From: a virus
Taxonomy: Duplodnaviria > Caudoviricetes
IMG/VR virus record: IMGVR_UViG_3300020438_000019
Coordinates: 16,894 to 80,893 of that record
Reading direction: 5' to 3' (one strand)
DNA length: 64,000 nucleotides
The notes under the pieces were generated by a model, which saw only the letters and a list, made by a program, of their open reading frames with translations, was not told the DNA's origin and did not search any database. The translations under genes and the position numbers were made by a program. Positions 10,345 through 22,122 of this stretch are shown here, piece after piece. Numbering within the stretch: position 1 is the stretch's first letter; every line of letters begins with the position of its first letter.

Positions 10345-10352
10345 TATAAATA
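10345..10352 (+). promoter_or_regulatory. T4-type late promoter
   Basis: Exact TATAAATA upstream of the 10395 ORF; second ATAAATA at 10320. Confidence 0.75.
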
Positions 10353-10394: not shown

Positions 10395-11420
10395 ATGGCA
10401 CTGCTAGTACCTAATATTGGCGAACTTGAGTCACTTCGTTATCTCGTTAACCAGAACAACTTCGTTTTGGATAGAGAGGATAATGCACCAAGGGATCTAA
10501 TTCTTAAGCTTTACACTACTGACACCACTCCTGCTGAAGCAGACGTGCCTAGTGTTACAGCATATTATGAACCATACCAAGATGGTAATACAAACAAGTA
10601 TGGACAAACTGTAAATACAGGGTATCCTCTTTGTATTAACAACCGTACAGAAGCAAGATACGATTATACTGATCAGTATGGTATTCTCCTAAATGGTGGG
10701 CAGTGGAAAATTAATCAAGATTCTACTGCTGGTGTTGTAACAACTGCTACTTATCCAGAACAGACTTTCACATTTGATGCTGCTGCTGGTAATGTCTACG
10801 GTTATTATATTGTAAGAGCAAATAACATGCCTCTTGCGATTCAAGGTGTTGCTGATGCTGCTTCAGGTGCTGCTGCTACTACTCTAACAAAGGGAGATAA
10901 CACAAACGTATGTATTGGAGTTATTGGTAACGACTATGTTACACTTCCTAACGTAGCTTCTGTAATGGATAACATTACAATCGGAATGGCTATTGGTGGT
11001 AACGCTGCTGTTCCTGCTGGTACAGTTATTGGTGGTATTGATCGTGCTCTTCGCCGTATCTACCTTGTAGATTCTGCTAATGTTTCTGTTGCTCTAACTG
11101 ATAACATTCAGGGTGCTACTGACCCAAGTATCACACTTGACTATACTTCAGTAACTGCTATTCAAGCTCACGGTTTACAACCAGGCGATGTTATTTACGT
11201 TGCACGTGGTACTTCAAACACTACAACTACTGAACAGACATATACAATCTTCAGTACACCTTCAACATCAACCTTCACTACAACTCCTGCATTGGATGGA
11301 ACTGGTAACCTAACTCTTTACAGCAGCATAATGTTCGCTGAAAGATTTACAAATGGTCCATACCCTATTCAGAACAACGGTGACCAAATTAAGGTTACAT
11401 TGAACATCAGTCTTGACTGA
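10395..11420 (+). CDS. putative tail fibre/filament structural protein (341 aa)
   Basis: Late promoter, GGAGA RBS and downstream hairpin; LKLYTTDTTP...YPEQTFTF...YGYYIV...FAERF...IKVTL pattern of phage tail-associated proteins. Confidence 0.6.
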   Translation: MALLVPNIGELESLRYLVNQNNFVLDREDNAPRDLILKLYTTDTTPAEADVPSVTAYYEPYQDGNTNKYGQTVNTGYPLCINNRTEARYDYTDQYGILLNGGQWKINQDSTAGVVTTATYPEQTFTFDAAAGNVYGYYIVRANNMPLAIQGVADAASGAAATTLTKGDNTNVCIGVIGNDYVTLPNVASVMDNITIGMAIGGNAAVPAGTVIGGIDRALRRIYLVDSANVSVALTDNIQGATDPSITLDYTSVTAIQAHGLQPGDVIYVARGTSNTTTTEQTYTIFSTPSTSTFTTTPALDGTGNLTLYSSIMFAERFTNGPYPIQNNGDQIKVTLNISLD

Positions 11421-11493: not shown

Positions 11494-14400
11494 ATGAACG
11501 AATACACCTACGATTCAAATACGATTTCTCTATATTCTACCGAAAGTTACGGCGATGTTACTGTCCTTAACGTAACGGATGATTATGGATCGATAGGTGA
11601 TGCTCCGACAAATTTAGAAGCAGAAAGTAATTTAAGTCAAGATAGTTTTGGAGAAGTCTCCATATCAGCAGATCATTACCCATTTGGAACAGCAACTATA
11701 TCTGGTGGATCACCAAGGGTAAGCTTCAGTCATGGTAATTTCGTTGCTGATGGAACTGCTCACCTCGCCTCTACCGCCTTAGAAGGCATCAGAAAGTTCT
11801 GGGTTGGTACTGGATCCCTATTTGAGATGGGTGGTGGTATGGAACGCAGCAGTGCGTTCTGGGTAGGTTCTGGTGGGATTACTGTATCTGGTACTTGTGA
11901 AGTAACAACAACATTAGATTGGAACGAATTCTTATTCGTACCATTCACTACAGAAGACTTGGGAGCTGTTGATGCAGTCCCAAGTCTTTTGGACTTTGGG
12001 GGTATACTAGATCCTAAAGATGGAGGAGAAGAATCTTGGGGATTTGTATACAATACGGATGATGTAAGAGGTGCAACATCATACCATAAGTTTAGTAATG
12101 CACCTTGGGCAGAATTTAATACTTATAGCTTTACTACAGACAGAACAGGTTCAGGTGGTCTATTTGCTGCAAGTGGTCTCTCGGAGACTAAGACCTCTAC
12201 AGAACTTGGAGATAAGACAACACTATTCAGTATAACTGGTGGAGAGATATACTCACAGACAAGTCGTGAGGTAATGTCTGGTAATGCTTCATTCGGAAGT
12301 GCTGGTGTTGAGAAGTTTGTACATGAGTTTAATGATGAGTCTGGATTTACACTAGACACAGCAGATTATGGATTAGTTTGGTATGGATTTAGTGAGACTG
12401 ATGATGATGGTAGTATTGCAGAACCTAAGTCAGGTGGTGAATATGATCATGGTGGAATTATATGGAATAACGTAGAGGCAAATACTGGTACATATGAATT
12501 GTATGGTCTCTATGATATCCAAGGAGATGGTACTTACGCTAGGTATTGGGATGGTGAAGGATCTATCCACATCACTGGACAAGACTTTACAACTAATTCA
12601 CCACATTGGACTGCATCTGGATCTTTATTCAGTGCTGGTGGTGCTGCTGAGTGTAGAACTGATACTATAGTTGGAAGTGATACAACTCTATTCACTTGGT
12701 CTGGTGCATACAGTGATCTTAAGTTCCAATATCATTGGACTGGATCTGGTTCTCTACCTGTAACTGGTGGTGTAGCAATACTAAGAACTTATGGATATGA
12801 TGATACTGCTACGATTGGATACAGTACTCAGAACTGGGGATCAATAACAGATAGTCCAGTTGATTCAGAGAATTGGGGTCTTGTTACTGAAGGATGGTTA
12901 TCAGAGAACTGGTGGTATGTCTGGCATGAGGGTGTTGCAACCTCAATGGGTGGATTTAAGGTTCGTACAGATCCTAAAGTTATTCATGATTCGACTCCAG
13001 AGAATTACTTTGATCCAACTAACCCAGGTCTTTCTGCTACCGAAGGTCACAACTTTGATACATATTCATTCACTTGGGGTCATGGGTTCGTACAAGGTGG
13101 TAATCTCTTCGGTATGGGAGGAGCTTCCGAGGCAGTTGGATATCAACCAGTTGAAGATATTGCACTGTTTACTTGGTCTGGTGCATATACTAACCTTCAA
13201 GCAACATTCAGAGAAATTGGATCTGGTTCTATATCGAGAATTGGTGGTGGAGCTGAGAGAGTCACCTTCGATTATAATGAATCATCTATTGTTCCATACT
13301 CATCAGATGATAATGGTCTGATAATAGATGCAGCAGTAGTAGTTGATCAAGGTAATGTTGCTGATATACAAGAAGGTGAAGATGATTATGGTTCTGTTCT
13401 TTATAGTTCTGTTGCATATCCTCTAGTTGGATCATATAGCATCACCAATCTACAGTTCTTTGGTGAGACTTATTCCTTCCAGAGAAGATACATTGCAGAT
13501 CCTGTATCCATATTCACTGCTCTTGGTGCTGTAGAGAGTAAGAGTACTACTGAGCTTGGTGAAGATACTTCATTAGGAGATCTTAGTGGTTCTGCTTCCC
13601 ATTATGTAATATTCAGGGAGACTGGTTCTGGTGCTATGTCCAGAATTGGTGGTGGAGTTGAGAGAGTTGTATTTGATTATAATGATAGTACAGTTGTACC
13701 ATACAGTAGTGAAGATAGTGGTCTTGTAATAGATGCTGCTACTACTGATGTTGATCTTGGTGATGTTACAGAAGTTCAGTATGGTGGTGAAGAGAATTAT
13801 GGTTTAGTTACTTACACTTCTACTGCTAATTCTGCACAGGGAACATTCACCGTCAGTCTCACAAGAGAATTGTGGACTCAGGAAGATATTGATAAGCTTA
13901 ATCCAGAATATACTACTAAACCATATGGTACATTCCCACAGGTAGGAGATGAGAAGACACAAGAAGAAGCAGGTCATCTTCGATTCATTCCTGTCTGGGG
14001 TCAAACTGGTTCTGGATCTCTATTCTCAGTTGGTGGTGCTTCTGAATCTGTAACGGTAGAACCAAATACAACTGGTATATTCCAGATGGTTGGTGGGGAT
14101 TACTATATCGGTAGTATGGTTGCAACCTTTGCCTTCCGTGAGGTTGGTTCTGGTTCTATGTCCAGAGTCGGTGGAGCTGCTGAGTCAGTAACATTCGATT
14201 ATAACGAGTCTTCTATTGTTACCTTTACTACTGAGGATGTAGGATTAGTAACAGATGCTACAAATTATCAAACTGATCATTTTGATGATGGTAGTGTAGC
14301 ACTTCCACAAGAAGCAGAGAATGATTATGGTTCAGTAATCTATGGTGAGACAGTATATCCTCTCACAGGATCTATTGATATATTCACTGCACCTGAATGG

Positions 14401-17400
14401 ATTGGTAACACATATAGATTTGTATGGAGAGCACCAGCTGGTAGTGGTGGAATACCAACTGTAGGTGGTGCTGCGGAATGTGTATCTACAACAGAACTTG
14501 GAGATTCTACAACACTATTCGATATCTACACTTCACCTGCAGGTATCGGTAACACCTATAGCTTCTGCTGGAATTACACTGGTTATGCATCAGTACCAAC
14601 TATCGGTGGTGCAGCTGAGTCTATAACATATGATTACAATGAGAATTCTATTGTTGTATTCACTACTGATGATAGTGGTCTTATAACAGATTCTGCTACT
14701 GTCTTTGACGATAGTACAGTTATAACTGCACCTCAGTCTGGTGGTGAATATGATTATGGTTGGGTATTCTGGACTAGCACAGTTCTTCCAGTTTCAGGAA
14801 CACTCCAATCTTCTGGTACTTCACCAAGTGCTACTGTATTCAGAGATCCTACACAGGGTGGATCACTATTCAGTGCTAGTGGAGCTAGTGAATGTGTTAG
14901 CACGACAGAACTTGGTGATGCTACAACACTATTTGATATCTACACTGCTCCAGCATACATTGGTAACACATATAGCTTCGTGTGGAATGCACCTCCAGGT
15001 ACAGGTGGATTATTCAGTCTTAATGGAGTTGCAGAATCTATATCATGGGCATATAACGAATCATCAATTATTCCATATGCAACAGTAGATAATGGATTGG
15101 TAGTTGATTCTGTAACTGTAGTTGATGACTATGGTTCAGTAATAGAATCTCAATATGGTGGAGAATATGATCAGGGACAGATTATATTCACATCTACTGC
15201 TACTCCATTCGGATCACTCAACTTAAGTCTAACAAGAGAACTGTGGACTCAGGCAGAGATTGATGAGTTACCTCCTACTTACGAGACAAAACCTTACGGT
15301 ACATTCCCAGTTGCAGGTCAAGAGAAGACTCAAGAAGAATCTGGTGATGTTAAGTACAAACCTATCTGGGGTCAGATTGGTGAAGGTTCTCTATATTCTG
15401 TAGGTGGTGCTGCTGAATGTATTGCTTATCAACCAACTGAGGATACAGCACTATTTGATATCTTCACTGCACCTCAATACATTGGTAACACTTACAGATA
15501 TGCATGGAGTTATGTTGGTTACTATAACTTACCTACTATTGGTGGTGCTGCTGAGTCAGTAACATTCGATTACAATGAATCTTCTATCAACGTATTCTCT
15601 GTTGATGATGAAGGTAACATTGTTGATAACGCAACAGTATTTGGTGAGTATGGCGACCTTAACATCCAACAAGGTGAAGATGATTACGGAACAGTAATTT
15701 GGACTTCTACAACATATCCTCTAACAGGAACACTCCAGACATCAGGTATTGGTTCAGAGTATGTTGTATTCAGAGATCCTACCACTGGTGGTTCTCTATT
15801 CAGTGCTGGTGGATCTGTCGAGAGTAAGACCTCTACTGAGTTTGGTGAAGATACATCACTTGGAGATCTTAGTGGTACTGGTATTCTATCCAAAACTAAG
15901 GATTGGGTTGGATCTGGATCACTATTTACTGCTCTTGGTGCTGCTGAGTCTGCAACATTCGATTACAACGAATCTTCCATCGTTACACACACAAGTGATG
16001 ACTATGGATTAATAGTAGATGCTTCTACTACCAATGTTGATCAAGGTAATGTTGCTGATATACAAGAGGGTGAAGATGATTACGGTTCAGTAATTTACAC
16101 TGAAACTGTCTATCCTACAACTGGATTAGTAACTCTTACTACTGCACCTCAGTTTATTAATAATACTTACAGCTTCTGTTGGAACTTTGTATCAGATGCT
16201 GGATCTCTATTCAGTGCTGGTGGTGCTGCTGAGTCTGCAACGGTTGATTGGGAATCAACAGGTCTCTTTGATGTCTTTACTGCATCTCAGTTTATTGGTA
16301 ACACATATAGCTTCGTATGGAATGCACCTCCAGGTACAGGTGGACTATTCTCTATTGGTGGTGCTGCTGAGTCTATTACATGGAACTATGCTCCTGGTCC
16401 AGTACTTCCATTCAGTACTACTGATTGGGGTGCAGTAGCTGATGCAACACATCCAACTAATGATGTAATCAATTACGGTGATCTTGGATTGTTCGATGAG
16501 GACACAGAAGATTACGGATTCGTAATTTACACATCTGAGACTGTTTCCAACTCTGGAACATATACCTTAAGTTTAACAAGAGCACTGTGGACTCAAGAAG
16601 AAATTGATGCACTTAACCCAGAGTATCTAACTGAGCCATATGGTACATTCCCACAGGTAGGGGATGAGAAGACTCAAGAAGAATCTGGTGATATTAAATA
16701 CGAACCATCTTACGCACATATTGGTGGCGGTACATTATTCACTGCTGGTGGTGCTGCTGAGGCTGCTGTCTATCAACCTACTGAGGATACTGTACTATTC
16801 ACTGCATTCACAGCACCTCAATTTATTGGTAACACCTATAGGTTTATTTGGAATGCACCTCCAGGCACAGGTGGATTGTTCAGTGTTGGTGGATGTGTAG
16901 AATCTAGATCTTATGTTTATAACGAATCTGGTGTTGTTACGTATGGTACTGTTGATTATGGATCAGTAACAGATCTAACACATCCAACCAATGATGCAAT
17001 CAATTATGGTGAGGTTGCACTACCTCAATCTGATGGTGAAGTAGACTACGGTTCCGTTCTCTACACCTCTACCACATATCCAACAACAGGTACTTACGTT
17101 GTTGATGGTGCTGTTACCCAGTCATTCAGTAAGGGTCTATACACTGGTGGTGGTTCTCTATTCGCTACAAGTGGTGCTGGTGAATGTGTATCTACTACTG
17201 AGTTTGGTGAGGATACATCACTTGGAGATCTTGGTGGTTCTGGTTCACAGTCACGTACTGTTGTTGAAATTGGATCTGGATCAATATTCAGAGCTGGTGG
17301 TGCTGCTGAGTGTAGGACATATGATTATGATCAGAGTGCTATCGTTGTATTCACATCAACTGATCATGGTCTAGTAGTAGACAGTGTAGTTACATCAGAT

Positions 17401-20400
17401 GATCAGGGTAGTGTTGATACTATTCAGTCTGGTGGTGAATATGATTATGGAACTGTACTTTACAGTGCTAATGCAATACCAGTAACAGGTACTTACGTTG
17501 TTGATGGTGCTGTATCTACTGCGTTTGTCTTTGGTAACTTTACTGGTTCTGGATCACTATTCACTGCTGGTGGTTCTGCTGAATCTTCAACATACTCACC
17601 TGAGAATGATACCTGTCTATATGATATCTTTACTGCTCCGCAGTTTATTGGTAACACATACAGCTTCGTATGGAATGCACCTCCAGGCACAGGTGGATTG
17701 TTTAGTGTTGGTGGATGTGTTGAAGTTAGAACATACGCTTACAATGAATCTGCTAGTCAGGCATTTAGCACTGAGGATAACGGTCTCATATCTGATGCTG
17801 TTACAACAACTGATGATCATGGTGACTTTGGATATGTTGGTGACGACACCGAGGATCATGGTCAGGTATGGTTGGGTGCTACCAATGGTGCTGCTGCAAA
17901 TGGATTCCTTACCTTCGGTGGTGAAGTATTCGAGATCTACAAACCAGCATATGCACATACTGGTGAAGGTTCATTATTTACTACTCTTGGTGCTGCAGAA
18001 TCCTTTACCACGACAGAGTTTGGAGAGGACACATCACTTGGTGATCTAAGTGGTACTCATTCTATAGTAAGAACATTCAGTGAGGTTGGAACTGGTTCTA
18101 TCTTTACTGTTGTTGGTGGTGCTGAGTCTAGAACCTACAACTATGATATCAACCTCACCGCCATAACATTCCAGGATGATAATGGTTCAATAACAGATAG
18201 TGCTACTACGATTGATGATCAAGGTACGGTTCATCCACCTCAAGACGGTGGCGAATACGATTATGGATCTATTTGGATTGGTCTTGGAAGTGAACTATGG
18301 AGATCTAGTGATACTGTATCTGCTTCTGGATTTGTTCATCTTGGTCTAATAAGTGATACCGTTGGTATTGCTAGAACATTTGGACACACTGCTTCTGGAT
18401 CACTATTTGCTACTGGTGGTGCAGCAGAGGTTGTTGTATACGATTACGAAGATACAACTCTATATGATATCTTCACTGCACCTCAATACATTGGTAACAC
18501 CTACAGCTTTAGTTGGCAGTACAGTGGATCTGGTAACATCAATTCACTTAATGGATGTGCAGAATCTAGAACATGGAATTATAGCGATACCTTACCATCT
18601 GCACTCGTTGTTGATGATGAAGGTAATGTCGTTGATGCTACAACAGTATTTGCTGATTACGGTGACCTTGGTGTTAGATGGGGTGGTGAAGAAGACTACG
18701 GTTCCAACAACACACTTGCACATCCTGGTCTCGCTGCATCTGGTACTTACACAATTAGTGGTGTTGCAAATACTCCATTCGTCTGGAGAGAAGGATGTGA
18801 AGGTGGTACGTATCTAGTTTCTGGTGAAGGAATAGAGAGACCTACAACAGCTCTAACTGGTGAAGGTACTGCATACATTTACACTGCACCTCAGTTTGTT
18901 GGTAACACATATGCATTCACTTGGGGTCATGGATTTGTACAGTCTGGATCTCTATTCAGTGCTGGTGGTGCAGCTGAGTCTACTACAACCAACCCACCAG
19001 AGGATACATTACTCTACACATTTGCTGGTACTAGAGTATCAGAACTTCGTACATATGCTGAGTCTGGATCTGGTTCCATCACTCTATCTGGTTCAGGTTC
19101 CGAACTTTACACTGGTGCATTTGAAGGATCTGGTACTGTTACTCTATCTGGTACAGGTGCAGAGAGCAAGTCGTTTGCTAACTTTGACGGATCTGGTTCA
19201 CTATTCACTGCTGGTGGAGCAGTTGAAATGGTTGCTGTTCTTGAAGGTGGAATCGGTCTTTGGACTTACAGTGGTTCTGGTATCGAGAAGCATACAGAGA
19301 GATGGATCGGTTCTGGATCTGCAACTGTATCTGGTGCTGGTCTTGAGGTATATTCCAGAGGTACGGTTACTGGATCTGGTACGGTTACATTATCTGGTAC
19401 TAAGGCAGAAAGCTTTACTCCAGCACCTGAGATTGGAACTGGTTCTATCTTTACTATTGGTGGTGCTTCTGAGTCTGCGACTGTTGATTGGGAATCTACA
19501 GGTCTCTTCAATGTTATTGGTTCCACTCATTATAACTTCTCACTCAGACATATTGGTTCTGGTTCACTATTCACTTCCAGTGGTGCTGCTGAATCCACAA
19601 CTACCAATCCTCCAGAAAATACTGCACTATTCGCAGTTGGTGGTACTAAGGCAGAAAGCTTTACTCCTGCAACTCATGTTGGATCTGGATCTATCACTCT
19701 ATCTGGTGCTGGTTCTGAGAATTACACTGGTGCATGTACTGGTTCTGGTACTGCAACTATCACTGGTGAAGCAGATCTCATCTACCGTGTTAGATACTTT
19801 GGTTCTGGTTCACTATTCACTGCTGGTGGTGCTGCTGAATCTGTTACAACCAATCCACCTGATAGTACTTCACTCCATCAAATTAGTGGTACTAGAGTTG
19901 AGAAAGCAGTATTCAGAGAAATCGGATCTGGATCTATCAGTTTCTCTGGTACTTCTCCACTTACCCGTTACATTCCACATATCACTGGTAGTGGTACTTA
20001 CACAGTTGGTGGTGCATGTACATTCAAGGTTCGTTACATCCTTGGTGGTTCTGGTAACATCTCCACATTTGGTGGTTCTGCCGAGGCAGTTGGTACTAAT
20101 CCTCCAGAGGATATTGCACTATTCGTTTGGTCTGGTATTGGCGAGAGTCAATGGTCACCTTCTTGGGTTGGTCAAGGTTCTTACTTCACATCTGGAGAAA
20201 TCCCAGAACCACTTATCACGAAACACTGGACTGCATCTGGTTCACTGTTCTCAGTTGGTGGTGCTGCAGAAAGCTTCTCTGCAAATATCGATGGTATTGG
20301 TCTATACGATATCAGTGGTGCATACTCAGATCTCAAGGCAACATACAGAGAAATTGGATCTGGATCTCTTTGGACAGCAAGTGGAGCATCAGAGTCTGTT

Positions 20401-21861
20401 GGAACCAATCCTCCAGAAAGCACAGTACTATACACATATATTGGTGCTGGTATCGAGAAGCACACCGAGAGATGGATTGGTTCTGGATCTATCAGTCTTT
20501 CAGGTGCTGGAGTTGCATTCTATACACCACACATTACTGGTTCTGGATTTGCTACTCTATCTGGATCAGCACTCGAAAGTCAGACAGACGATTGGGTTGG
20601 ATCTGGATCACTATTTACTGCTGGTGGTTCTGCAGAATCTACAACTACAAATCCTCCAGAGGATACAGTTCTCTATACTTGGACAGGTGCTGGTACAGAG
20701 AAGCATACAGAGAACTGGGTTGGTTCTGGATCTACAACATTCTCTGGTGCAGTCTCCGATGTTCAAAGAACATTTGCAGAGACAGGATCTGGATCTCTAT
20801 TTACAGCTCTCGGTGCAGCAGAATCTATCTCCACAAGCGAGGTCAGCACTGGAATCTTCACAATCAATGGAGACGGTGCAGATTCAAGAGCAAGGATATT
20901 TGTTGGATCTGGTTCTATTACCATTTCTGGTACAGCAGCAGAAGCAACAGTTGTTCCTCTTTCTGGATCTGGTACTGCTACCTTCAGTGGAGAAGCATTT
21001 ATCAGATGGATCCCAAGTTGGATTGGTTCTGGTACAGCAACAATATATGGTCAAGTCACCGATGTTCAGATTACAAAACATTGGACTGGATCTGGATCCC
21101 TATTCACAGCAGGTGGTTCCGCAGAATCGATTACCACGAATCCTCCAGAGGATACGTTACTCTACACAGTTGCAGGTAATCTTGCTGAGAGCTTTACTCG
21201 TGCTCCATACATCGGATCTGGTACTGCTACCTTCAGTGGTGAATCTAAAAACATATTCACACCTAACAATATTGGTTCTGGTTCAATATATGTTGCTGGT
21301 ACTCTGGATGAAAGACAGACAGATCATTATCATGGATCTGGTACTGCTACAGTTAGTGGTGATTCTGATGACGCACGTGCAAGAGCATTTGAAGGATCTG
21401 GATCTCTATTCACTGCATCTGGAGCTGCTGAATCTACAACTGTTGATTACGAAGATACAACTCTATATGACATCTTCGGTCATGGTGCAGAAGCCTTTGT
21501 ACGTAAGGGATATGTCGGATCTGGTTCCTTCAGTGGTATTGGTGGAACAGTTACCGATGTTAAGCTTACACATGCTGATCCAGCAGGTGATGTTGACTAC
21601 GTTGTATCTGGTGAAGTTACAGATATCAAACGTACCTTCGGATACGTTGCACCTTACGGAACACTATTTGCCTTCGGTGGAGGAGTTGAATCTGCCACTG
21701 TTGACTATGAAAATATTCTTCTTACAACAATTGGTGGTAGTGCAGATGATAAATTCGTCAGATCTGCATACATTGGAGAGGGAACAATTACTCTCAGTGG
21801 AGAGTCCCTCAATGAGCTCAGAACATTCGAGCCACCATTCATGTTTGCAACGATAATATAA
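11494..21861 (+). CDS. giant acidic G/S/T-rich repeat protein (3455 aa), probable virion fibre/scaffold
   Basis: Continuous ORF with dozens of GSGSLF(S/T)AGGAAES repeats and DDYG modules; located in late tail-gene region. Confidence 0.8.
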   Translation: MNEYTYDSNTISLYSTESYGDVTVLNVTDDYGSIGDAPTNLEAESNLSQDSFGEVSISADHYPFGTATISGGSPRVSFSHGNFVADGTAHLASTALEGIRKFWVGTGSLFEMGGGMERSSAFWVGSGGITVSGTCEVTTTLDWNEFLFVPFTTEDLGAVDAVPSLLDFGGILDPKDGGEESWGFVYNTDDVRGATSYHKFSNAPWAEFNTYSFTTDRTGSGGLFAASGLSETKTSTELGDKTTLFSITGGEIYSQTSREVMSGNASFGSAGVEKFVHEFNDESGFTLDTADYGLVWYGFSETDDDGSIAEPKSGGEYDHGGIIWNNVEANTGTYELYGLYDIQGDGTYARYWDGEGSIHITGQDFTTNSPHWTASGSLFSAGGAAECRTDTIVGSDTTLFTWSGAYSDLKFQYHWTGSGSLPVTGGVAILRTYGYDDTATIGYSTQNWGSITDSPVDSENWGLVTEGWLSENWWYVWHEGVATSMGGFKVRTDPKVIHDSTPENYFDPTNPGLSATEGHNFDTYSFTWGHGFVQGGNLFGMGGASEAVGYQPVEDIALFTWSGAYTNLQATFREIGSGSISRIGGGAERVTFDYNESSIVPYSSDDNGLIIDAAVVVDQGNVADIQEGEDDYGSVLYSSVAYPLVGSYSITNLQFFGETYSFQRRYIADPVSIFTALGAVESKSTTELGEDTSLGDLSGSASHYVIFRETGSGAMSRIGGGVERVVFDYNDSTVVPYSSEDSGLVIDAATTDVDLGDVTEVQYGGEENYGLVTYTSTANSAQGTFTVSLTRELWTQEDIDKLNPEYTTKPYGTFPQVGDEKTQEEAGHLRFIPVWGQTGSGSLFSVGGASESVTVEPNTTGIFQMVGGDYYIGSMVATFAFREVGSGSMSRVGGAAESVTFDYNESSIVTFTTEDVGLVTDATNYQTDHFDDGSVALPQEAENDYGSVIYGETVYPLTGSIDIFTAPEWIGNTYRFVWRAPAGSGGIPTVGGAAECVSTTELGDSTTLFDIYTSPAGIGNTYSFCWNYTGYASVPTIGGAAESITYDYNENSIVVFTTDDSGLITDSATVFDDSTVITAPQSGGEYDYGWVFWTSTVLPVSGTLQSSGTSPSATVFRDPTQGGSLFSASGASECVSTTELGDATTLFDIYTAPAYIGNTYSFVWNAPPGTGGLFSLNGVAESISWAYNESSIIPYATVDNGLVVDSVTVVDDYGSVIESQYGGEYDQGQIIFTSTATPFGSLNLSLTRELWTQAEIDELPPTYETKPYGTFPVAGQEKTQEESGDVKYKPIWGQIGEGSLYSVGGAAECIAYQPTEDTALFDIFTAPQYIGNTYRYAWSYVGYYNLPTIGGAAESVTFDYNESSINVFSVDDEGNIVDNATVFGEYGDLNIQQGEDDYGTVIWTSTTYPLTGTLQTSGIGSEYVVFRDPTTGGSLFSAGGSVESKTSTEFGEDTSLGDLSGTGILSKTKDWVGSGSLFTALGAAESATFDYNESSIVTHTSDDYGLIVDASTTNVDQGNVADIQEGEDDYGSVIYTETVYPTTGLVTLTTAPQFINNTYSFCWNFVSDAGSLFSAGGAAESATVDWESTGLFDVFTASQFIGNTYSFVWNAPPGTGGLFSIGGAAESITWNYAPGPVLPFSTTDWGAVADATHPTNDVINYGDLGLFDEDTEDYGFVIYTSETVSNSGTYTLSLTRALWTQEEIDALNPEYLTEPYGTFPQVGDEKTQEESGDIKYEPSYAHIGGGTLFTAGGAAEAAVYQPTEDTVLFTAFTAPQFIGNTYRFIWNAPPGTGGLFSVGGCVESRSYVYNESGVVTYGTVDYGSVTDLTHPTNDAINYGEVALPQSDGEVDYGSVLYTSTTYPTTGTYVVDGAVTQSFSKGLYTGGGSLFATSGAGECVSTTEFGEDTSLGDLGGSGSQSRTVVEIGSGSIFRAGGAAECRTYDYDQSAIVVFTSTDHGLVVDSVVTSDDQGSVDTIQSGGEYDYGTVLYSANAIPVTGTYVVDGAVSTAFVFGNFTGSGSLFTAGGSAESSTYSPENDTCLYDIFTAPQFIGNTYSFVWNAPPGTGGLFSVGGCVEVRTYAYNESASQAFSTEDNGLISDAVTTTDDHGDFGYVGDDTEDHGQVWLGATNGAAANGFLTFGGEVFEIYKPAYAHTGEGSLFTTLGAAESFTTTEFGEDTSLGDLSGTHSIVRTFSEVGTGSIFTVVGGAESRTYNYDINLTAITFQDDNGSITDSATTIDDQGTVHPPQDGGEYDYGSIWIGLGSELWRSSDTVSASGFVHLGLISDTVGIARTFGHTASGSLFATGGAAEVVVYDYEDTTLYDIFTAPQYIGNTYSFSWQYSGSGNINSLNGCAESRTWNYSDTLPSALVVDDEGNVVDATTVFADYGDLGVRWGGEEDYGSNNTLAHPGLAASGTYTISGVANTPFVWREGCEGGTYLVSGEGIERPTTALTGEGTAYIYTAPQFVGNTYAFTWGHGFVQSGSLFSAGGAAESTTTNPPEDTLLYTFAGTRVSELRTYAESGSGSITLSGSGSELYTGAFEGSGTVTLSGTGAESKSFANFDGSGSLFTAGGAVEMVAVLEGGIGLWTYSGSGIEKHTERWIGSGSATVSGAGLEVYSRGTVTGSGTVTLSGTKAESFTPAPEIGTGSIFTIGGASESATVDWESTGLFNVIGSTHYNFSLRHIGSGSLFTSSGAAESTTTNPPENTALFAVGGTKAESFTPATHVGSGSITLSGAGSENYTGACTGSGTATITGEADLIYRVRYFGSGSLFTAGGAAESVTTNPPDSTSLHQISGTRVEKAVFREIGSGSISFSGTSPLTRYIPHITGSGTYTVGGACTFKVRYILGGSGNISTFGGSAEAVGTNPPEDIALFVWSGIGESQWSPSWVGQGSYFTSGEIPEPLITKHWTASGSLFSVGGAAESFSANIDGIGLYDISGAYSDLKATYREIGSGSLWTASGASESVGTNPPESTVLYTYIGAGIEKHTERWIGSGSISLSGAGVAFYTPHITGSGFATLSGSALESQTDDWVGSGSLFTAGGSAESTTTNPPEDTVLYTWTGAGTEKHTENWVGSGSTTFSGAVSDVQRTFAETGSGSLFTALGAAESISTSEVSTGIFTINGDGADSRARIFVGSGSITISGTAAEATVVPLSGSGTATFSGEAFIRWIPSWIGSGTATIYGQVTDVQITKHWTGSGSLFTAGGSAESITTNPPEDTLLYTVAGNLAESFTRAPYIGSGTATFSGESKNIFTPNNIGSGSIYVAGTLDERQTDHYHGSGTATVSGDSDDARARAFEGSGSLFTASGAAESTTVDYEDTTLYDIFGHGAEAFVRKGYVGSGSFSGIGGTVTDVKLTHADPAGDVDYVVSGEVTDIKRTFGYVAPYGTLFAFGGGVESATVDYENILLTTIGGSADDKFVRSAYIGEGTITLSGESLNELRTFEPPFMFATII
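13342..17718 (+). repeat. dispersed near-identical DNA repeats inside the giant gene
   Basis: gttgatcaaggtaatgttgctgatatacaaga(a/g)ggtgaagatgatta at 13342 and 16036; tggaatgcacctccagg(t/c)acaggtgga at ~14983, 16318, 16849, 17671; ccatatggtacattcccacaggtagg at 13921 and 16636; acaggtacttacgttgttgatggtgctgt at 17086 and 17485. Confidence 0.9.
18860..21856 (+). other. nested stop-free +1 reading frame (998 codons, L/V-rich) within the giant gene
   Basis: ORF track; about 30 +1-frame stops by hand count in the preceding 2.85 kb versus zero here. Confidence refers to the frame being functional. Confidence 0.55.
20127..21179 (+). other. nested stop-free -1 (+2) reading frame (350 codons, W/C/R-rich); all three forward frames open
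   Basis: ORF track; systematic synonymous switching (gca gaa, ggc gag, tcc gat, acg aaa) that avoids T|AA, T|AG and T|GA junctions. Confidence 0.6.
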
Positions 21862-21877
21862 CTGAAGATTTTGATGG

Positions 21878-21885
21878 TATAAATA
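21878..21885 (+). promoter_or_regulatory. T4-type late promoter
   Basis: Exact TATAAATA upstream of the 21913 ORF. Confidence 0.75.
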
Positions 21886-21912
21886 AAAGAAGCATAAATT
21901 CGAGGGAAAACT

Positions 21913-22122
21913 ATGACTAAGCAGGTACAGTTGAGACGGGGTACTACAGTACAACAGTCAACATTTACTGGAGCTCTTGGAGAATTGACCGTAGATACTA
22001 CGAAAATGACCCTTGTTCTCCATGACGGAGCAACTCAAGGAGGCATAGAATTTGCTCGAAGAGACGATGTTACTGCAGAAGTAACAACAAGTATGGGCAT
22101 GATGGCCGCCCTTGGTTGGTAA
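21913..22122 (+). CDS. small protein consisting of an Mtd_N/hyaluronidase-N-like tail-fibre N-terminal domain (69 aa)
   Basis: VQLRRGTT...FTGALGELTVDT...LHDG.T.GG motif; GAGG RBS. Confidence 0.75.
   Translation: MTKQVQLRRGTTVQQSTFTGALGELTVDTTKMTLVLHDGATQGGIEFARRDDVTAEVTTSMGMMAALGW

Follow-up and report, generated by a model that had tools for sequence, protein, structure and literature searches.

Purifying selection keeps a kilobase of a cyanophage tail-module gene free of stop triplets in all three forward frames

The 64,000-nucleotide (nt) window analysed here (positions 16,894 to 80,893 of IMG/VR virus record IMGVR_UViG_3300020438_000019) belongs to the 80,893-nt (80.9 kb) contig of a T4-like cyanophage with a G+C content of 38.5%, and carries on its + strand a giant gene (11494..21861) of the phrog_11522 family, whose main open reading frame (ORF) encodes a periodic, all-beta, acidic tail-module protein of 3,455 amino acids. 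Within the repeat array that forms the C-terminal part of this gene, purifying selection on synonymous codon choice has removed every pair of codons that would spell a stop in the -1 frame between 20097 and 21177 and, less strictly, has done the same in the +1 frame from 18854 to 21854. The functional protein is encoded by the main frame, and the only constraint detectable on the other two is that they contain no stops.

From TAA 20097-20099 to TAA 21177-21179, a distance of 1,080 nt, the + strand has not one further TAA, TAG or TGA in any phase. No other stretch open in all frames exceeds 145 nt on the + strand or 106 nt on the - strand, whether the window or the full contig of 80,893 nt is considered. 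The -1 (or +2) frame delimits the block, with 359 sense codons and no stops between its bordering triplets (20097..21179, + strand), and together with the other frames it makes up a three-frame void. The +1 frame is open for 999 sense codons (18854..21856, + strand), running from TAA 18854 to TAA 21854 through the whole C-terminal array and closing 3 nt ahead of the main stop codon.

The absence of stops is visible at individual codon junctions. Sixty-three codons of the block begin with AA, AG or GA, and the third base preceding them is A in 33 cases, C in 19, G in 10 and T in just one, this sole T-preceded junction being the closing stop at 21177 itself. T is nonetheless still the commonest third base of the block (148 of 360 codons). 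Ala-Glu is spelled GCA GAR at all six of its occurrences in the block; in the rest of the giant gene, GCT GAR is used at 19 of 34. Stops in the -1 frame number 27 in the 1.1 kb before the block and 27 again from 21177 to the end of the gene, and the intervening -1 product contains 45 Trp in its 359 codons. Across the array, Leu, Val and Ile codons end in A at only 1 of 96 junctions before a purine, compared with 33 of 67 before a pyrimidine (Fisher 1e-14); in other genes, 20-37% of such codons before a purine end in A. The counts of junctions, Ala-Glu spellings, -1-frame stops and Trp bear out an earlier sequence-only reading of this stretch, which had reported about 1.08 kb open in all three forward frames, some 60 AA/AG/GA junctions with no T before them despite the dominance of T at third positions, invariable gca ga(a/g) for Ala-Glu, about 27 -1-frame stops in the preceding 1.1 kb that resume after 21179, and a -1 product with about 45 Trp. 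The TTG at 20127, which it had offered as a possible point of entry, and the first ATG, at 20151, are both present. The longer opening of the +1 frame was no part of that observation.

The sequence-only reading had proposed a codon-shuffle null test, and the block comes through it. Synonymous permutation within the block yielded a mean of 20.5-21.0 -1-frame stops and a minimum of 10, as against the observed 0, and zero was reached in none of 20,000 and none of 2,000 shuffles. With codons drawn from the flanking repeats the expectation was 26.9 and with codons drawn from the whole gene it was 29.5. Over the 999 codons of the +1 frame, 0 stops were observed where 15.9 (within-region permutation) or 39.9 (whole-gene codon usage) were expected, and none of 5,000 shuffles reached zero. 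When all 64 trinucleotides of the block were compared with the expectation from the flanks, the most depleted were TGA (0 against 20.2), TAA (0 against 6.7) and TAG (0 against 4.5); GCC, of which 2.8 were expected, was missing as well. Repeats of this type on either side of the block hold 29 and 26 stops in the -1 phase (31.4 and 23.8 expected), and 0 and 1 in the +1 phase (6.7 and 6.0 expected). Among 14 control genes of the window, including giants of 2,737 and 2,039 amino acids, the -1-phase ratio of observed to expected stops was close to 1, and z ranged from -1.9 to +3.8 in the -1 phase and from -3.9 to +2.3 in the +1 phase. Codon or amino-acid composition is ruled out as the cause by the shuffles, by flanks that sit at their -1-phase expectation and by the control genes.

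The array is nevertheless made of repeated modules, and a single unit of ~80 codons would lack -1-frame stops by chance about 1% of the time, as estimated from the measured stop density; a void that arose without selection, through composition or through the recent amplification of one stop-free unit, might be imagined on this basis. However, the repeat copies share only 60-80% DNA identity and every spacing between them is a multiple of 3, so that the void cannot be put down to a single stop-free unit recently amplified, and this source was rejected. Furthermore, shuffles that preserve both amino acids and codon usage never arrive at zero, the same-type repeats on either side are at their -1-phase expectation, the void survives synonymous divergence (dS) of ~0.65 and persists in homologues of ~26-30% identity, and at-risk sites do change, yet never to T. 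An origin without selection is already refuted, and we allow it next to no probability. In Ohno's idea of internally repetitious coding sequences, openness in every frame follows from repeat units of a length not divisible by 3. The present gene is likewise periodic with three sense frames open; here, in contrast, every spacing is divisible by 3, and it is codon choice according to context that keeps the frames open.

Scans of IMG/VR and of metagenomes yielded 16 loci, of which ten are distinct and full-length; with the window, these make a set of 11 sequences with 61-93% protein identity to the window. The remainder are duplicates (L015 equals L014, L018 equals L003 and L020 is nearly L019) or partial loci that do not cover the block (L007, L008 and L021). 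A -1-frame block of 344-465 codons is present in 11 of 11. Its closing stop falls in alignment column 982 in ten sequences and in column 980 in locus L019, and its opening stop falls in column 630 in seven sequences, 615 in two, 554 in L019 and 513 in locus L006. The additional upstream codons protected in the -1 frame number 116 in L006 (0 stops against 10.2 expected, with none of 2,000 resamples reaching 0) and 75 in L019 (0 against 5.7, with 1 of 2,000 resamples reaching 0), and the other sequences carry 3-14 stops in the columns that these two keep open.

At the level of single sites, the alignment of the 11 sequences contains, in the common block, 39 at-risk columns, in which a third-position T would create a stop; none of these has T and 15 of them vary among A, C and G. 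In the two flanks, T appears in 26 of 32 and 31 of 42 at-risk columns, with 16 and 19 columns mixing T and non-T. Counted by cell, T occupies 0 of 335 at-risk third positions in the block versus 55-66% in the flanks. At third positions of the block that are not at risk, T stands at 56%, as elsewhere, a figure at odds with the import of a segment generally low in third-position T, which the sequence-only reading had considered. The void is retained at a block dS of 0.60-0.68 to L006.

The +1 frame is fully open in 7 of the 11 sequences. In L001, L003 and L017 it carries one or two stops ~100 codons in, and in L016 there is one inside the block. This stop, at ~4906 of L016, a metagenome orthologue, lies within the triple-open block at a point where the -1 frame is still open; the two frames are therefore protected independently. 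Orthologues with -1-frame stops throughout the interval would have spoken against the original claim, and the block is kept in every sequence. The further expectation that both alternative frames stay open with the same boundaries holds for the 3' border of the -1 frame, while the 5' border of that frame moves and the +1 frame is leaky in 4 of 11 sequences.

The depletion extends to far more distant relatives. Syntenic homologues in the cyanomyoviruses S-CAM1, S-CAM3, S-SSM7, Sf-FS3 and S-SCSM2R share ~26-30% protein identity with the window, and all five are depleted of off-frame stops in both phases (z -3.8 to -12.8). Of 12 neighbouring genes, 11 lie within z -2 to +1.4, among them a 3,403-amino-acid gene and tail-fibre genes; the exception is one S-CAM3 gene, whose -1 phase has z -2.9. 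In S-CAM1, a single -1-phase stop (71.6 expected) and no +1-phase stop (14.8 expected) occur in the final 1,051 codons of the gene. Long -1-frame stretches were recorded in S-CAM1 (579 and 490 codons), in S-CAM3 (five, of 154-455 codons) and in S-SSM7 (398 codons). As the main frame is without Trp and Cys in these stretches, ATG, GTG and TTG are entirely missing from them. The stop void belongs, as these comparisons show, to the gene family across several cyanomyovirus genera.

In the distant homologues the open stretches reach to within ~120 nt of the end of the gene, or to the start of the next gene. In S-CAM1 (L009 8036-8044) the +1 frame continues beyond the main stop and closes 5 nt short of the ATG of the following gene, in S-CAM3 (L010 15193) the +1 stop overlaps the start codon of the following gene, and in S-SCSM2R (L013 13148) the -1 frame closes where the following gene begins; in these three phages, ribosomes in any frame would therefore be brought to the intergenic junction. 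Four open +1-frame stretches of 223-254 codons succeed one another in the N-terminal half of the S-CAM1 gene (L009 1877-4789), and in the last two of these the +1 stops lie within the same repeated motif, about one per super-repeat.

The sequence-only reading had also predicted lowered synonymous divergence in the block, a prediction that the alignments do not support. Block dS ranges from 0.116 to 0.675 in ten pairs and equals or exceeds that of at least one flank in all ten; it is not below that of the flanking repeats or of the upstream part, over which no open frame lies. Between the window and L003, dS is 0.363 in the block and 0.18-0.28 in the comparison segments, and between the window and L006 it is 0.675 and 0.54-0.83, respectively. 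A sliding window of synonymous differences reveals local dips and no overall reduction across the block. Since the third position of the main frame is a first or second position in the other frames, silent changes almost always alter both off-frame peptides, and the window and L006 are 48-50% identical off-frame compared with 64% in the main frame. The unreduced synonymous divergence thus indicates that selection purges stop triplets only and that the off-frame peptides are not conserved. The ratio of nonsynonymous to synonymous divergence (dN/dS) of the main frame is 0.38-0.51 in the block, similar to the flanks, and 0.3-0.68 across all four segments of the giant gene that were tested. The proposal of a sharply bounded triple-coding region under selection is accordingly upheld in so far as the region is bounded, open and selected; lowered synonymous divergence is not supported, and a nested gene with its own start becomes less likely. 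Two of the local dips within the block (synonymous divergence 0.01-0.11), at 20587-20660 and 20239-20300, coincide with GSGSLF...AES modules and may be due to gene conversion between modules or to recent exchange.

Long alternative frames on the same strand would ordinarily suggest overprinted genes, as in the overlapping phage genes A/A*/B/K of phiX174 and Rz/Rz1 of lambda, which likewise comprise long same-strand alternative ORFs that are conserved among relatives and can be detected by stop depletion. Here, a -1 gene of ~342-350 amino acids might run from ATG 20151 or TTG 20127 to TAA 21177, and a +1 gene of up to 998 amino acids from GTG 18860 or a later ATG, each encoding a fast-evolving product of odd composition (rich in Trp, Arg and Cys in the -1 frame, and in Leu and Val in the +1 frame). 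Both ORFs are indeed far longer than the shuffles allow by chance, and the -1 closing stop occupies one column in 10 of 11 sequences, with that of L019 two columns earlier. The first ATG of the -1 frame (20151..20153, + strand), which is a candidate start only and competes with TTG 20127 and TTG 20163, is present in 9 of 11 sequences. For the +1 frame, the window and all five distant homologues have a start codon 1-21 codons past the 5' stop; +1-frame start codons are, however, forced by composition.

Several observations speak against overprinting, beginning with the synonymous divergence itself, which is not lowered. L006 and L019 are the two sequences without ATG 20151, yet these protect 116 and 75 more codons upstream of it, and the first 122 codons of the open frame in L006 contain no ATG, GTG or TTG. 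A GAGAG motif ends 3 nt upstream of ATG 20151, a spacing judged poor for a ribosome-binding site. TTG 20163 is kept in seven of the seven sequences checked, because a conserved main-frame Trp forces TTG there. GTG 18860 (18860..18862, + strand), the first possible start of the +1 ORF and one codon beyond the +1 stop, is found in 5 of 7 sequences examined and has no Shine-Dalgarno-like motif at a usable distance; in L001 and L003 a later +1 stop places the beginning of the +1 ORF further downstream, and in L016 the +1 ORF is split. No promoter-like site was found on the + strand inside the giant gene. Searches of Pfam and PHROG gave no family for either off-frame product, and in a collection of 5.8 billion clusters, searched only among proteins of 192-613 amino acids, nothing related to the -1 product was found; use of the -1 peptide as a main frame elsewhere was discarded within that same range. 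No conserved start with a plausible ribosome-binding site was thus found for the -1 frame, and the absence of -1-frame start codons in the distant homologues makes nested genes with starts of their own unlikely there. The nested gene that the sequence-only reading had placed among its options is weakened on both counts, by the upstream protection in L006 and L019 and by the startless stretches of the distant phages. The present case also departs from known overprinted genes in that its synonymous sites are unconstrained, its -1 frame is often startless, its 5' border shifts and its three frames are open over 1-3 kb. We regard true overprinting as unlikely, though not negligible.

All three triplets are missing from the block in every phase, and this alone would be consistent with a frame-blind avoidance of UAA, UAG and UGA in RNA or DNA, for example as an escape from a nuclease or a binding protein. 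The depletion in the flanks, however, is specific to one phase (present in +1, absent in -1), the -1 phase still contains UAU and UAC along with many UGG (45 TGG), and the - strand has no comparable feature. The presence of UAU and UAC and the abundance of UGG mean that the avoided set is exactly the stop set. To our knowledge, only the release factors and the ribosome read exactly this set of triplets. A host RNase targeting stop triplets, another of the options raised earlier, is unlikely given the phase-specific avoidance in the flanks, and we consider frame-blind avoidance of any kind very improbable.

The protein encoded is part of a tail-fibre module and evolves fast (block dN/dS 0.38-0.51), which might favour an array in which insertions and deletions are tolerated. 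In an experiment in Bacillus subtilis, the removal of out-of-frame stops is reported to have broadened the range of indels tolerated (Vallin et al. 2026, PMC13006647), which makes such tolerance plausible in principle. By analogy, a stop-free array, in which frameshifted segments could be translated, would let compensated pairs of indels yield a viable fibre with a novel segment, and would so supply variation to a protein engaged in an arms race. Natural variants give no support to such a history. No gap of a length other than a multiple of 3 occurs in the block among the seven sequences aligned as DNA; L006 has the sole pair of such gaps (1 + 2 nt), situated upstream at ~1 kb from the block, and the main frame is unbroken in 11 of 11 sequences. 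Contigs from four public runs, which gave fragmentary coverage and only repeat-induced joints, contain no indels, although contigs drop rare variants. There is no hypermutable tract, the gene having no homopolymer of at least 6; over 17000-22000, the only tandem repeat detected inside the gene was an 18-nt unit in 2.3 copies at 19360. When the main-frame protein of the window was compared with off-frame translations of four relatives, the best of 24 comparisons gave E 0.69; evolutionary frame switching was rejected, as no off-frame translation of those relatives was matched. Second-order selection of this kind would, moreover, need to hold ~40-60 sites for a very long time. The absence of a mutable tract and of natural frameshift variants, together with a scale of a kilobase rather than a loop, distinguishes the array from contingency loci and from compensated indels. 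The tolerance of compensatory indels suggested by the sequence-only reading accordingly finds no frameshifting gap in the block to rest on, and we judge it a good deal less likely than overprinting.

Only translation is known to read exactly TAA, TAG and TGA phase by phase, and it follows that ribosomes would at times have to use these frames. The explanation that we favour, tentatively and at a little under an even chance, has frameshifting as the route by which ribosomes reach these frames, and selection acting against any termination within the array. On the pattern of stops, ribosomes would sometimes travel in the +1 and -1 frames of the array. Entry into the -1 frame would most likely occur by frameshift from the main frame and not by initiation of its own, because the -1 frame is often without a start codon. 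Ending translation within the array would be harmful and hence selected against. Possible gains are that no cleanly truncated, assembly-competent fibre fragments would be released, that every ribosome would be carried to the end of the gene, or that minor isoforms with off-frame tails would be made.

In keeping with programmed frameshifting, a second frame is open through to a defined stop. A site of entry was nonetheless not apparent, and this weighs against frameshift entry. The only X_XXY_YYZ heptamer of the giant gene is at 11610, far from the block, and the gene contains no homopolymer of at least 6. Inspection of the alignments revealed no slippery site at either 5' border, with contexts prone to +1 shifts surveyed by eye only. 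At the 5' limit of the -1 block, the helices of the predicted RNA fold are nearly invariant, with a covariation term of +0.98 and 2 of 56 pairs compensatory. The canonical frameshift site that might have been expected at 20050-20200, where the sequence-only reading had proposed a dual-reporter assay, is therefore not borne out by a heptamer, by a homopolymer of at least 6 or by a covarying structure. Two other candidates were set aside: GGATC palindromes as a cause of slippage, since their density does not follow the void, and the avoidance of T before TT and of A before AA at codon junctions as a speciality of S-CAM1, which proved to be a general codon-context bias in most genes tested. TTT and AAA spanning a codon boundary are under-represented in most of the genes tested (window, L009 and L011), with z down to -10.7 in the largest, and the shortage is a general bias against homopolymer runs.

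Further points count against off-frame ribosomes as the cause. A 3' stop fixed in 11 of 11 lineages resembles a discrete ORF and not diffuse tolerance of error, and protection in the -1 frame covers, in the clade of the window, only 1 kb of a 3-kb array of one repeat type, which this explanation does not predict. The +1 frame is leaky, with one or two stops in 4 of 11 sequences. Other giant genes of the same phages are without the trait. If frameshifting were mere error, the selection coefficient per site would be tiny. The matches in RNA libraries are fragmentary contigs over parts of the array, which cannot show frame or transcription.

Phage structural genes include well-known cases of programmed frameshifting, such as lambda G/GT, T7 10A/10B and the +1 shifts of Listeria phage PSA. 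The giant gene resembles these in being a virion gene with a second frame open downstream, and entry without a separate start codon would fit here too. It differs from them in that searches revealed neither a slippery heptamer nor a shift site at a stop codon nor a stimulatory structure with support, and in that its open frames extend over 350-1,000 codons and not tens, with unconserved sequence and an unfixed 5' limit. A second precedent is the ambush hypothesis, known also as that of hidden stop codons, under which off-frame stops are enriched in order to end frameshifted translation early (PMC2996987, PMC3700767, PMC5909447). The present case would share with the ambush hypothesis selection on synonymous sites acting through frameshifted ribosomes; its sign is the opposite, since off-frame stops are here wholly purged, and in one gene family alone.

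A bolder version of frameshift entry, which we consider improbable and place on a level with overprinting, is that the array is meant for multi-frame decoding: ribosomes would leave the main frame without a classical shift site and would deliberately be left unterminated, producing either fibres with off-frame tails or chains marked by a junk tail. By the first route, a minor population of fibres would bear long off-frame tails rich in Trp and Arg or in Leu and Val. By the second, the junk tail would mark frameshifted chains for destruction and so spare the phage clean truncations that poison assembly. This second route might cooperate with a transfer-messenger RNA (tmRNA), which most phages carrying the gene family appear to encode.

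ARAGORN predicted tmRNA-like genes adjoining clusters of transfer RNA genes in S-CAM1 (L022:1279-1593), S-CAM3 (L024:1571-1885), S-SSM7 (L023:1460-1811) and Sf-FS3 (L029:1452-1779). The tag peptides of these four share an AANNIVAFSR core, their places in the GenBank records are unannotated or called hypothetical proteins, and their matches to Rfam RF00023 are all below the gathering score. A tmRNA-like match was obtained in 15 of 16 GenBank records with the gene family. S-SCSM2R possesses the gene family, with the weakest depletion, yet has no tmRNA-like match; conversely, S-CRM01 has such a match, yet no member of the gene family. In the clade of the window, no tmRNA was detected in genomes G000 (43% complete) or G001 (70% complete), partial genomes in which absence proves nothing. 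The co-occurrence of tmRNA and gene family is striking but not one-to-one, may reflect shared ancestry and is not independent evidence.

An acidic protein with much Gly, Ser and Thr, the product of the giant gene consists of short beta-strand-like modules in series. It matches a single PHROG family, phrog_11522 (E 1e-114), to which no function is assigned, and no Pfam family. An AlphaFold2 model of the residues encoded by 19930-21258 is all-beta, with a mean predicted local distance difference test score (pLDDT) of 48.4 that is too low for a fold search, and a sequence search of the PDB with the block protein matched no solved structure. The gene is homologous to syntenic genes of S-CAM1, S-CAM3 and S-SSM7 (E 1e-17 to 1e-49). 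It is preceded by its syntenic partner, a phrog_10467 gene of 341 amino acids (10395..11420, + strand), ahead of which a TATAAATA motif stands at 10345. The 3' side of the giant gene presents, in order, a second, late-promoter-like TATAAATA motif at 21878 (21878-21885), a gene of 69 amino acids (21913-22122), the two together spanning 21878..22122 on the + strand, and a fibre-like gene of 2,039 amino acids. In S-SSM7, Sf-FS3 and S-SCSM2R a 335-amino-acid gene of the phrog_10467 type is followed by a giant periodic gene, as in the window. The homologues of S-CAM1 and S-CAM3 have on their downstream side a small gene for a tail protein and one for a tail fibre. Assignment to phrog_11522 is supported both by the profile match and by synteny behind a phrog_10467 gene of 335-341 amino acids.

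Some features of the neighbourhood stand apart from the void. S-CAM1, S-CAM3 and S-SSM7 have a 152-amino-acid 'tail protein' gene in place of the 69-amino-acid gene, without the promoter gap. The junction between the N-terminal two thirds of the giant gene and its C-terminal array (18650-18860) is unusually conserved in DNA, even to L006, with a synonymous difference fraction of 0.05-0.10 compared with a mean of 0.16, and may be a recombination linker. In L006, a second copy of the RGGCEGGT motif is found ~50 codons downstream.

Searches of the literature outside subscription journals and supplements turned up no account of off-frame stop depletion, or of selection for it, in a phage, a cyanophage or a fibre gene. 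The feature falls short of the defining traits tested for nested genes, for programmed frameshift sites and for contingency loci. It amounts to strong and long-lasting selection on silent sites that is not explained by a nested gene, a programmed frameshift, a contingency locus or codon bias. For annotation it is a warning that very long, conserved ORFs in an alternative frame are not necessarily genes. The cultured phages S-CAM1, S-CAM3 and S-SSM7 carry the trait and thus provide a clean system in which it can be tested, with the sharp prediction that silent stops will be harmful inside the void and harmless in the flanking repeats. If ribosomes read these frames, a kilobase of a bacterial virus gene would have been shaped by the frequency or the cost of off-frame translation, and the cost of premature termination could exceed that of making junk, reversing the usual assumption. 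If multi-frame decoding were true, the array would be the longest triple-frame region known to us, and would reveal a new layer of selection on silent sites in these cyanophages, the inverse of the ambush hypothesis.

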